Below, piece after piece: positions 5,995 to 33,150 of a stretch of 41,346 nucleotides of DNA (positions are counted from its first letter, which is position 1; each line of letters opens with the position of its first letter). The notes beneath the pieces are model-generated. The model was not told the DNA's origin. It saw only the letters and a program-made list of their open reading frames with translations, and searched no databases. A program made the position numbers and the translations under genes. Source of the stretch: a virus; UHGV virus genome UHGV-0007810; one strand, given 5' to 3'.

Positions 5995-6030
5995 ATATTT
6001 ATTATCTGAAATAAATATCAGGCAATAGCT

Positions 6031-6261
6031 ATGAGCGATAACGGACATTTCGATTTCAAAAAGCACTGGCTTGCACTTACTCCGGATGAGCGTGAAGCCT
6101 TCGCACAGGAAGCCGGAACGACGAGTCACTATATCCAGACTCACTTAACAGGTAAGCGCAAAATGCCAGGTAAGGTATTGATGAATGGGCTTTTTAAAGC
6201 CTGTAAAACAAGACAATGGCTGCGCTCAAAAGCAGAACTGGCATACTTCTTCTACTCATGA
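6031..6261 (+). CDS. Cro-like HTH regulator
   Basis: 76 aa; HTH-like LTPDEREAFAQEAGTTSHYIQTHLTGKRK; divergent from the repressor across the triple-operator region. Confidence 0.6.
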   Translation: MSDNGHFDFKKHWLALTPDEREAFAQEAGTTSHYIQTHLTGKRKMPGKVLMNGLFKACKTRQWLRSKAELAYFFYS

Positions 6262-6283
6262 TATCCAGCCACAACCCTCTGTA

Positions 6284-6308
6284 GACCGCCATCCGGCGGT
6301 CTTTTCAT
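6284..6308 (+). terminator. Rho-independent terminator after the cro-like gene
   Basis: GACCGCC-ATCC-GGCGGTC followed by TTTTCAT. Confidence 0.6.
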
Positions 6309-6316
6309 ATCTATTC

Positions 6317-6331
6317 GTACCTCAAAGGTAA
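6317..6331. promoter_or_regulatory. Operator-like palindrome (variant) GTACCTCAAAGGTAA
   Basis: Just downstream of the post-cro terminator and upstream of the replication operon. Confidence 0.45.
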
Positions 6332-6411
6332 TAAAAAACCAAATCTGGTTGATCTTTTTTTTGTGTCAGCACAAAATGACCGTAATCCCAATACTAATAA
6401 CAGGGCTTACC

Positions 6412-6612
6412 ATGGAAATCATTACACGTATTGATGCCGCAAAGCGCGGACTTAAACGCTACTACACCGGAAAACCATGTAAGCATGGACATGACAGTGA
6501 ACGCTGGGTTTACAACGGACACTGTGTTGAGTGCACCATGGAATCAAACCGTCGCATCAGGGCAGAGATTAAGCAGATCATGATTAATTCCTCCCCACAA
6601 CACTCAAGCTGA
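6412..6612 (+). CDS. Hypothetical Cys/His-rich small protein (cII position)
   Basis: About 66 aa from the ATG at 6412; C-x4-H ... C-x2-C arrangement (KPCKHGH...GHCVEC); start uncertain (ORF track starts at 6349 with TTG). Confidence 0.45.
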   Translation: MEIITRIDAAKRGLKRYYTGKPCKHGHDSERWVYNGHCVECTMESNRRIRAEIKQIMINSSPQHSS

Positions 6613-6627
6613 TAGCGGAGATTAATC

Positions 6628-7443
6628 ATGAGCAGACATGCAACAGATTGGGCCTGGGAGACAGATCCAGGTAGCTCATCATTAAAGCTCATACTGCTCT
6701 CGATGGCTGACAGAGCCGATGAATATAACCTCTGCTACCCCAGCATAGAACGCCTCGTTAAAGACACTTGCCTGAATAAAAAAACCGTGCAGGCCGGGCT
6801 TATATCGCTCATGAAAATGGGGCTTATTTCAGATACCGGAGAGAGAAAGGGAGCGACAAAAAGAGTGCGGGTTTTCTCTCTTAATATAACCAAAAACGGG
6901 AACATTAAAGGCAACCGGGAGGGGGGCAATGAACCCGAAAACGGTAATGTTACCGAAAACGGGAATATACCCAAAAACGGGATGTTGAATGATCCCAAAA
7001 ACGGGATGTTGAATGATCCCAAAAACGGGATCCAGAACCAGTCATATAACCAGTCATTTAACCAAGAGAGGGAGAGCAGGACAAAAACCGGGGATTCTGT
7101 TCCTCATGACCCCGGCGCAAACAACGCCGTGATGAATAACTTTGTTCCTCCTGGTGGGCCAGGGCAATTAGGCAAATTTGTCATGCATGAACAATGGCAG
7201 CCATCAGATGACTTTCTTCGGAAAAGCTCATTGCAGGGAATCTACCTGGACAGTCTGCCAACGGCACAGGAACTTGCAGAGTTCAGAATTTACTGGATGG
7301 CTGAGGGTAAGGCATACCATCAGGCACAGTGGGAGCAGAAGCTGGCAAGGCGGCTGCAGATTAGCAGACAGAAGCAATCAACATTACCTGATAACAACGT
7401 TCCGCACTGGAACAGCCCTGAAGCATGGGAGGATTTCTTGTGA
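6628..7443 (+). CDS. Replication initiator (O-like, N-terminal DNA-binding domain)
   Basis: 271 aa; GGAG Shine-Dalgarno; position before the P-like gene; internal KNG-rich repeat region encoded by direct DNA repeats. Confidence 0.6.
   Translation: MSRHATDWAWETDPGSSSLKLILLSMADRADEYNLCYPSIERLVKDTCLNKKTVQAGLISLMKMGLISDTGERKGATKRVRVFSLNITKNGNIKGNREGGNEPENGNVTENGNIPKNGMLNDPKNGMLNDPKNGIQNQSYNQSFNQERESRTKTGDSVPHDPGANNAVMNNFVPPGGPGQLGKFVMHEQWQPSDDFLRKSSLQGIYLDSLPTAQELAEFRIYWMAEGKAYHQAQWEQKLARRLQISRQKQSTLPDNNVPHWNSPEAWEDFL
6889..7035. repeat. Iteron-like direct repeats inside the O-like gene (candidate replication origin)
   Basis: Six copies of CC(A/G)AAAACGG(G/T) at 6889, 6934, 6954, 6971, 6994, 7018 (spacing 17-45 bp); two are full 24-bp repeats CCCAAAAACGGGATGTTGAATGAT; AACCAGTCAT x2 follows at 7047-7067. 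Confidence 0.6.
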
Positions 7444-8225
7444 ACAACGTTTTTACCGCGATACAAAACCGTGACGGAGAAGCCCTTTCTCGCATGTCAG
7501 GTTATGAGCATCAGTACACCAACAATGACAACGTGGTGAACATGTCAGCAGAGAGGCTTGTTGATGCCCTTTTCAAACAGCTGAAACAACTGTTTCCGGC
7601 GGCAGTGGTAACCAACCTGAAGACGCCAGAGCAGGAAGTTGCTGCAAAACAGCAGTGGATTGCTGCGTTTGCCGAAGGGGGGATCCGAACCCGTGAACAG
7701 GTTTCTGCTGGTATGCGCCACGCCCGCGCCAGTGAATCTCCGTTCTGGCCGTCGCCAGGGCAATTCATCAAGTGGTGTAAAGACAGCAAGATGGTTCTTG
7801 GCGTCACCATTGACGATGTGATGGCGGAGTTTCACCGGTACAGCAAGGAAAAAAGTTTATATCCTGGTGGTCCCGAAAGATTCCCGTGGCGACATCCGGT
7901 TATGTACTGGGTCGTATGTGATACCCGCCGTGCAATGTATCAGCGCCAGCTTAGCGAGATTGAGGTTGAGAAACACGCGCGCAGGCTGCTCGATGATTGG
8001 GCGAAAAAGGTGGCTTCCGGACAGCAGATACCCGATCCGGTGATCAGCATACAGGCAAAGCCAGAACCCATGAGTACGCCTCCGGACACAGGGAGAGACG
8101 TTTACCATCCACCAGGGCGAAGTTTCGGGTGCATGCCTAACGCCGCCACCCTTGGGGGAATAACACCGGCGCAGTGGCTGATGGAGGAATACAGGCGGGG
8201 AAAGGCGTCAGGATTTATCAAGTAA
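7440..8225 (+). CDS. Replication protein P-like (helicase loader)
   Basis: The segment GGIRTREQVSAGMRHARASESPFWPSPGQFIKWCK resembles lambda P as recalled; likely start is GTG 7440 (GGGAGG upstream, overlapping the O stop) rather than the ORF-track start 7425. Confidence 0.7.
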   Translation: MNNVFTAIQNRDGEALSRMSGYEHQYTNNDNVVNMSAERLVDALFKQLKQLFPAAVVTNLKTPEQEVAAKQQWIAAFAEGGIRTREQVSAGMRHARASESPFWPSPGQFIKWCKDSKMVLGVTIDDVMAEFHRYSKEKSLYPGGPERFPWRHPVMYWVVCDTRRAMYQRQLSEIEVEKHARRLLDDWAKKVASGQQIPDPVISIQAKPEPMSTPPDTGRDVYHPPGRSFGCMPNAATLGGITPAQWLMEEYRRGKASGFIK

Positions 8226-8230
8226 TACCA

Positions 8231-8250
8231 GCGCGATAGCGCATTTTTTT
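8231..8250 (+). terminator. Weak terminator-like element after the P-like gene
   Basis: Short GCGC-GATA-GCGC stem followed by a run of eight T. Confidence 0.35.
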
Positions 8251-8262
8251 ACGTCTCGATAA

Positions 8263-8277
8263 TTACCTTCGAGGTAA
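8263..8277. promoter_or_regulatory. Operator-like palindrome TTACCTTCGAGGTAA
   Basis: Exact; upstream of a sigma70-like promoter (TTGATT-17-TTTAAT at about 8297-8325). Confidence 0.55.
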
Positions 8278-8324
8278 TAAAATATTCTAAAATCTATTGA
8301 TTTCGTGTCTTATGTGGTTTTTAA

Positions 8325-14076: not shown

Positions 14077-14153
14077 TGGCGTGGCATGCAGGATTCGAAC
14101 CTGCGACCAACCGCTTAGAAGGCGGTTGCTCTGTCCAACTGAGCTAATGCCAC
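14077..14153 (-). tRNA. tRNA-Arg (anticodon UCU)
   Basis: Reverse complement folds as a cloverleaf: acceptor GTGGCAT/ATGCCAC, D-stem GCTC/GAGC, anticodon stem ACCGC/GCGGT with loop CTTCTAA (anticodon TCT), T-arm GCAGG-TTCGAAT-CCTGC, discriminator G and CCA. Confidence 0.9.
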
Positions 14154-32881: not shown

Positions 32882-33150
32882 AGTGGTTACCTTTTAGTCA
32901 GGTTAATCACCACTACCGACGCCAATCGGTTGGTGGTGAACTGTGCAGGGTTGGCGTAACCGGCTAAAAGGACCCGGCGCACCTTTCGGTGCCCCCACAC
33001 AGCCCACCATAATACGAATGTGGCCGTGCTATACGCATAAAAAAACCGCTTGCGCGGTGAATGCGCCTTTTAGTAATCCGGGACGCCAATCCCGGCACTG
33101 GATTTTGCCAGTGCCCGATTACTATGGCACAAGAGGAGTGCAATGTAAAT

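Follow-up and report, generated by a model that had tools for sequence, protein, structure and literature searches.

Why does the replication initiator gene of a temperate phage carry an array of near-identical direct repeats in the middle of its coding sequence, and is that array maintained as DNA or as the linker peptide that it encodes? We address this question in UHGV virus genome UHGV-0007810, whose whole 41,346-nucleotide stretch is hereafter called the window and which represents a phiV10-like temperate podovirus of the genus Uetakevirus. Across positions 6000-8300 the DNA is 98% identical to phiV10, phiv142-3, PAS61 and others, and the initiator gene itself shares 98% of its DNA sequence with phiV10 p43, annotated as 'replication initiation protein'. 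The RefSeq record of phiV10 marks no origin or repeats at the orthologous gene, our literature search found neither a description of this origin nor experimental data for the phage or its family, and the vB_EcoP_ZX5 paper does not discuss the origin. A phiV10-type replication region of 98% identity was also encountered, unexpectedly, in PP488543.1 (BP9, a 138 kb Vequintavirus) and PP350014.1 (PH444, 115 kb), which suggests chimeric assemblies or prophage contamination. Elsewhere in the window, the minus strand carries a tRNA-Arg gene (anticodon TCT) at 14077-14153, and at 32929-33114 C4 antisense RNA (RF01695) and isrK (RF01394) were matched side by side in Rfam, both with scores that exceed the gathering score.

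Pfam analysis of the initiator identified an HTH_36 winged helix (aa 18-67, E 1.8e-10) and a DnaT domain (aa 184-252, E 1.1e-15), and solved DnaT C-terminal domain chains in the PDB matched aa 180-265 at E ~1e-20 (Table 1). The C-terminal domain is presumed to contact single-stranded DNA and/or the P-DnaB complex. An AlphaFold2 model of the N-terminal 91 aa (pLDDT 91.4) comprises four helices and a beta-hairpin wing that ends just where the repeats begin. Foldseek comparison of this domain with the PDB returned generic winged-helix regulators only and no initiator-specific match, the best hits being dimeric winged helices of the MarR/Fur/BlaI type (TM 0.55-0.60, E at least 4e-3). The preliminary description had called the protein O-like, and this stands in the functional sense, with a P homologue encoded next to it, but not as a statement of family, given the HTH_36 and DnaT C-terminal domains: the initiator has no match to Phage_rep_O (PF04492) even at E<=10, where lambda O itself scores 5.7e-36, BLASTP of the N-terminal domain against lambda O found no match, and hhalign against lambda O gave a probability of 3% from profiles too shallow to settle homology. 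A published study states that HTH_36 is detected in lambda O by HHpred (PMC5509034). Judged by its sequence and neighbourhood, the initiator is a predicted functional analogue of lambda O and not, by sequence, a member of the PF04492 family.

For the lambda P-like gene, GTG 7440 is the probable start, and it overlaps the initiator stop codon (GTGA); the phiV10 annotation shows an identical 4-bp overlap of the two genes, and GGGAGGA lies ahead of this GTG at 7427-7433. The list of open reading frames places the start at ATG 7425 instead. On the other side, directly upstream of the initiator gene, a small open reading frame (6412-6612, plus strand) encodes a Cys/His-rich peptide (..CKHGHDSERWVYNGHCVEC..) that has no Pfam match and whose phiV10 counterpart is annotated as hypothetical.

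Table 1. Positions in the window of the initiator gene, its neighbour and the repeat elements
Feature	Position	Strand	Details
Replication initiator gene	6628..7443	+	271 aa; HTH_36 winged helix, repeat-encoded linker, DnaT-type C-terminal domain
Winged-helix DNA-binding domain coding region	6628..6888	+	aa 1-87; presumed iteron reader
Iteron 1	6882..6905	+	TAATATAA-CCAAAAACGG-GAACAT; core 6890-6900; 45 bp before iteron 2
Iteron 2	6927..6950	+	core CCGAAAACGGT, 6935-6945
Iteron 3	6945..6968	+	core CCGAAAACGGG, 6953-6963; 18 bp after iteron 2
Iteron 4	6963..6986	+	GAATATAC-CCAAAAACGG-GATGTT; core 6971-6981; 18 bp after iteron 3
Iteron 5	6987..7010	+	GAATGATC-CCAAAAACGG-GATGTT; dyad ATCCC-AAAAAC-GGGAT; 24 bp after iteron 4
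Iteron 6	7011..7034	+	GAATGATC-CCAAAAACGG-GATCCA; perfect 6+6 dyad GATCCC-AAAAAC-GGGATC, 7014-7031
Three 12-bp units	7035..7070	+	GAACCAGTCATA / TAACCAGTCATT / TAACCAAGAGAG; TRF 12-bp period
Purine-rich tract	7059..7095	+	~80% A+G on top strand; ends in CAAAAACCGGGGAT
DnaT-type C-terminal domain coding region	7177..7383	+	aa 184-252; Pfam and PDB chain matches
Lambda P-family helicase-loader gene	7440..8225	+	Pfam Phage_lambda_P (PF06992), E 1.5e-56

The motif CCRAAAACGGK has six exact matches, all on the plus strand (6890, 6935, 6953, 6971, 6995 and 7019), which span 6890-7029 at spacings of 45, 18, 18, 24 and 24 bp, whilst the remaining 41 kb holds only two matches, each with one mismatch; none of 100 dinucleotide-preserving shuffles matched the observed total. 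In register, the full iteron reads GAAY-N4-CCRAAAACGG. TRF reported a 24-bp period at 6970-7031 (2.6 copies, 100% matches, corresponding to two perfect 24-mers and a partial third), together with periods of 18 bp at 6933-6982 and 12 bp at 7036-7064, and a separate repeat search recovered the same six 24-nt units. All repeats, cores and 12-mers alike, fall within codons 88-148 of the 271-codon reading frame, and the six iterons (6882-7034) occupy codons 88-135, between the HTH_36 and DnaT domains, where the encoded peptide runs TKNG..PENG..TENG..PKNG..PKNG..PKNG..QNQSYNQSFNQ. The preliminary description is thus borne out in its six direct repeats with a CC(A/G)AAAACGG(G/T) core, its two perfect 24-bp copies, their position in the middle of the gene, the paired AACCAGTCAT that follows the cores and the KNG-rich linker (TKNG, PENG, TENG and three PKNG) that the repeats encode.

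Inverted arms flank the cores, perfect over 5 and 6 bp in iterons 5 and 6 and reduced to CC/GG or CCG/CGG in iterons 1-3. On the minus strand, at 7021-7002 and 6997-6978, the arms of neighbouring iterons pair into a 6-bp hairpin with TTTTT behind it, which resembles an intrinsic terminator. These terminator-like matches in the 24-mers probably arise from the dyad arms in combination with the A5 tract, and the overall count of the promoter and terminator scan was at chance level. DnaA-box matches were likewise at chance level, with none in 6600-7430. The minimum of the cumulative GC skew, at ~5-6 kb, was rejected as an origin marker because it coincides with the switch in gene orientation and is not discriminating.

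The distinction between DNA and peptide was drawn by comparison across homologues. Scanning one genome per species with an alignment of the N-terminal domain yielded 80 loci with 44-87% identity to the domain of the window, from hosts including Superficieibacter, Marinobacterium, Vibrio, Providencia, Proteus, Pseudoalteromonas, Acinetobacter, Marinomonas, Desulfovibrio and others, and in nearly all of them a repeat linker follows directly after the winged helix. Peptide units were picked on protein sequence alone, as [PSTAD][KE]NG, giving 104 units from 76 distinct open reading frames, in which the units are encoded xCC-RAA-AAC-GGK. Within units, proline was always CCC (81/81, compared with 15% outside the linker in the same genes), serine TCC (8/8; 9%), threonine ACC (15/15; 25%), lysine AAA (79/79; 68%) and glutamate GAA (25/25; 61%), with asparagine AAC in 90 of 104 (49%); neither the units of one locus nor the loci of one clade are independent of each other, so that these codon statistics, like the permutation figures below, overstate significance, although the signal still spans many genera. 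In those genera synonymous sites are otherwise saturated.

The same DNA is also used regardless of how it is translated. The core CCNAAAA[CG][GT]G is read in three frames in the homologous genes, as PKNG (n = 92), xQKR (n = 22) and PKTE or PKSG (n = 13), and is all but missing elsewhere in each 4-kb locus and on the minus strand. Searching proteins with the 89-aa domain gave mainly truncated sequences, and these revealed the QKR-frame repeats. In several loci (L104, L092 and L087) units are spaced 17 bp apart, placing successive units in different frames, and units 17 or 22 bp apart shift frame at every unit. The plan of the array is nevertheless preserved to nearly the base pair, from 45, 18, 18, 24 and 24 bp here to 45, 17, 17, 24 and 24 or 46, 17, 17, 22 and 22 bp in more distant Acinetobacter clades, which carry the variant core CCAACAAYGG (for example GAACAGTNCCAACAAYGG); across clades, the core takes the forms CCAAAAACGG, CCAACAAYGG and CCAAAAGTGG. 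Sequences flanking the core vary by taxon yet stay complementary (ACCC/GGGT, CACCC/GGGTG, ACCCCC/GGGGGT and ACCCG/CGGGT). At the two outer arm positions, 6 and 7, complementarity was 0.51 and 0.54, against 0.38 and 0.29 when permuted (reached in 0 of 1000 permutations, with the non-independence noted above); it also exceeded slid controls, and several pair types were present.

A second element, CAGAAYCnnnCAnn(G/T)AAYCnnnCA.., follows the array in 50 distinct loci with a period of 11-12 bp and 2-3 copies, the version in the window being the AACCAGTCAT pair. Its reading frame is 0 in 45 loci and 1 in the other 5, and the distance from the last core to the start of GAAYCnnnCA is 14 bp in 34 of 51 distinct loci and 15 bp in another 5. 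Taken together, the fixed synonymous codons, the use of three frames, the conserved spacing, the dyad in the flanks and this second element indicate that selection acts on the DNA motif and the geometry of the array, not on the encoded peptide.

Downstream of the iterons in the window, the 12-mers begin exactly where the GAAT of a next iteron would fall and resemble the left halves of iterons, such as that of iteron 1 (TAACCAAAAACGG), making 7035-7070 a candidate unwinding or second recognition element. The preliminary description had also pointed to an A/T-richer stretch here, which holds in part. The AACCAGTCAT repeat at 7036-7065 is the AT-richest part downstream, with 67% AT over 30 bp against 52% for the gene, but this is unremarkable, since 7.8% of all 30-bp windows in the 41 kb are at least as AT-rich and iteron 1 itself sits in a stretch that is more so; the remainder is purine-rich and not AT-rich (81% purine on the top strand at 7059-7094, in the top 0.08% of 36-bp windows). 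A classical AT-rich unwinding element is therefore not clearly present in this phage. Averaged over the family, the 40 bp after the second element are modestly AT-richer (0.65-0.67 against 0.57), and in Vibrio and Pseudoalteromonas loci the stretch is very A-rich or AT-rich. At the far side of the 12-mers, CAAAAACCGGGGAT (7081-7095) looks like a degenerate right-half iteron and is a possible site of that kind; phiV10, BP9 and typing phage 9 have CAAAAAACGGGGAT at this place, indicating a substitution in the window.

The reading that we favour, and consider likely, is that 6882-7095 constitutes a replication origin on the lambda plan, embedded in the gene for its own initiator; as part of the same reading, the KNG-rich linker would in all likelihood be a passive translation of the origin. 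The N-terminal winged helix would bind the six GAAY-N4-CCRAAAACGG iterons, probably as dimers, the best sites being those that form the dyad (GA)TCCC-AAAAAC-GGGA(TC). Fixed spacing and an A5 tract in every site could then support an O-some-like nucleoprotein complex, strands might open in the 12-bp repeats and purine-rich tract at 7035-7095, which is the weakest step, and the DnaT-type C-terminal domain together with the lambda P-like protein would, from their domain families, bring in host DnaB. That lambda-like origin iterons lie within an initiator gene, as first proposed for this locus, held up in every computational test applied and is strongly supported by the placement of the domains, the conservation of motif, frame use, spacing and second element across homologues, and the dyads. 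The arrangement is of an expected, textbook kind; its documentation is new for this protein family.

Conservation at the DNA level points to binding sites and does not by itself say what they do, and the sites might be mainly regulatory, serving autoregulation, a transcriptional roadblock in the early-right operon, handcuffing to control copy number, or the titration and exclusion of phages related to this one, with the true origin elsewhere. Such a role would sit well with the lack of a strong AT-rich unwinding element beside the array and with the known interference of ectopic lambda ori copies with phage growth (PMC3349717, PMC4488673). The window, however, has no other cluster of the motif, the equivalent sites of lambda serve initiation, and the conserved polarity, the fixed offset of the 12-mers and the adjoining A- or purine-rich tract match the layout of an origin. 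We therefore regard a mainly regulatory function as improbable.

Comparison with ori-lambda, which in lambda itself and in lambdoid and Stx phages comprises 4-6 iterons and an AT-rich region and works through the O-some and the loading of DnaB by P, brings out the extent of the likeness to the proposed origin. Both sit inside the initiator gene, in the stretch that separates its DNA-binding N-terminal domain from its C-terminal domain, and both are direct-repeat arrays of 4-9 repeats at roughly 18-24 bp, followed by an A- or purine-rich, strand-asymmetric tract and then by a P-family gene. The annotated lambda iterons (ATCCCTCAAAACGAGGGA, ATCCCCTAAAACGAGGGA and so on) are spaced 20, 24 and 23 bp apart within O codons 117-145, with an A-rich tract next to them. 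Each system has a C-rich/G-rich dyad around an A-tract, ATCCCTC-AAAAC-GAGGGA in lambda and GATCCC-AAAAAC-GGGATC here, and in each the number of iterons varies between relatives, with four reported for lambda and six for Stx phages (PMC7466680). Unlike lambda, the phage described here has a DnaT-type C-terminal domain, and its AT-rich region is weak, with 12-bp repeats resembling half-iterons in its place.

Two further systems share parts of this organization. DopC and DopE, a domesticated bacterial pair of an HTH_36 plus DnaT_C protein and a P-like protein (Brezellec et al. 2017, PMC5509034), have the same two-gene architecture with an adjacent P-like partner. Homology between DopC and lambda O was reported to be confined to the N-terminus, and its authors found no iteron-like sequences in dopC (PMC5509034). 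The phage gene differs in carrying a full iteron array, as would be expected of a mobile, ancestor-type version. Iteron origins of theta plasmids (RepA/pi/TrfA, Rep_3) likewise combine direct repeats with a winged-helix initiator, here the predicted reader; there, in contrast, the iterons are normally found beyond the rep gene, next to DnaA boxes, whereas the present array is intragenic with no DnaA box nearby. In RK2, repeats of the unwinding element are bound as single-stranded DNA by the Rep protein (PMC4081077), which offers a possible analogy for the 12-mers.

The N-terminal domain and its iterons behave as a module, joined to different C-terminal domains and always adjoining replication genes. 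Next to it lies a lambda P-like gene in the window and in L090, an IstB/DnaC-like ATPase in L087 and L096, a DnaB helicase in L099 and a Toprim primase-helicase in L089. Swapping of this kind would follow if repeat recognition falls to the N-terminal domain and contact with the helicase-loading partner to the C-terminal domain. The reverse exchange, which fits the same expectation, is seen in TL-2011b-type phages, which keep the DnaT_C domain (46% identity) and P (82%) and have an unrelated N-terminal domain; this allele has none of the CCAAAAACGG iterons. Within the gene of TL-2011b (NC_019445; 1252-1279 and 1461-1488 of the extracted locus, L004) a 28-bp sequence with the palindrome GTAACGC-N4-GCGTTAC occurs twice, the copies lying 209 bp apart, and these may be binding sites of that initiator allele. 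Both the switch to other C-terminal domains and other downstream partners right behind the conserved QNQS.. (GAACCAGTCA) element and the mosaic breakpoints that flank the gene in TL-2011b-type phages could also be taken to mean that the conserved DNA is a recombination junction, persisting because it promotes the exchange of initiator domains between phages. We consider this very improbable, as it leaves unexplained the six dyad-symmetric sites, their near-base-pair spacing, the covarying arms and the conservation across genera in which the surrounding DNA has fully diverged; the junction is more likely a by-product of the origin.

A still broader claim, which we put forward tentatively, is that the GAAY-N4-CCAAAAACGG array and the 11-12-bp GAAYCnnnCA repeats could form a portable and previously undescribed origin module common to phages and prophages across Gammaproteobacteria and beyond. 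The 12-mers would then be a sequence-specific element for unwinding or single-stranded DNA recognition, analogous to DnaA-trios or the RK2 13-mers and read by the HTH_36 initiator whatever its partner, be it a P-like loader, a DnaC-like loader, a DnaB helicase or a primase-helicase.

Near-identical phages and E. coli prophages differ in copy number within the array, always by changes that keep the reading frame. The repeat state of the window was the commonest among 80 near-identical IMG/VR loci (n = 52), the others having 4-9 cores and 1-3 12-mers; phiV10 carries AACCAGTCATAT three times, BP9 lacks one of the 24-mers, and the proteins of E. coli prophages are 271, 279, 287, 291 or 311 aa long. 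Such variation is how a neutral tandem repeat behaves, and with the perfect 24-bp copies and the low-complexity peptide it might suggest a slippage-prone repeat that encodes a flexible K/N/G/P-rich linker from functionless DNA, but a meaningless linker repeat has next to no likelihood, being contradicted by the synonymous positions fixed across many genera, the use of the motif in all three frames and the spacings of 17 and 22 bp, which are not multiples of three. An apparent recombination breakpoint inside the array of O157 typing phages 9 and 10 proved to be an assembly gap filled with a run of N; in these 'partial genome' records (typing phage 9, KP869107, at ~1900-2000 of the extracted locus L003) the N run or the end of the record falls exactly at the array, and short-read assembly evidently fails at the repeats. 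Gene prediction across the iterons is unreliable as well: many database proteins of the family, for example P0009, P0025 and P0031, are truncated or frameshifted at or near the array, and several Vibrio phage records (H28-H38) have the gene annotated as two open reading frames.

Overall, the analysis provides a concrete origin candidate of ~210 bp for phiV10-like O157 phages, which include reporter and typing phages, and extends such a candidate to a broad family of HTH_36 initiators listed in databases simply as 'primosomal protein', 'DnaT' or 'helix-turn-helix protein'. The array accounts for the polymorphism in gene length and for the breaks in assemblies and gene calls at this site, and it contrasts with the domesticated DopC gene, reported to be iteron-free. 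Above all, the locus presents a clean case in which selection at the level of DNA appears to override the reading frame inside a gene.
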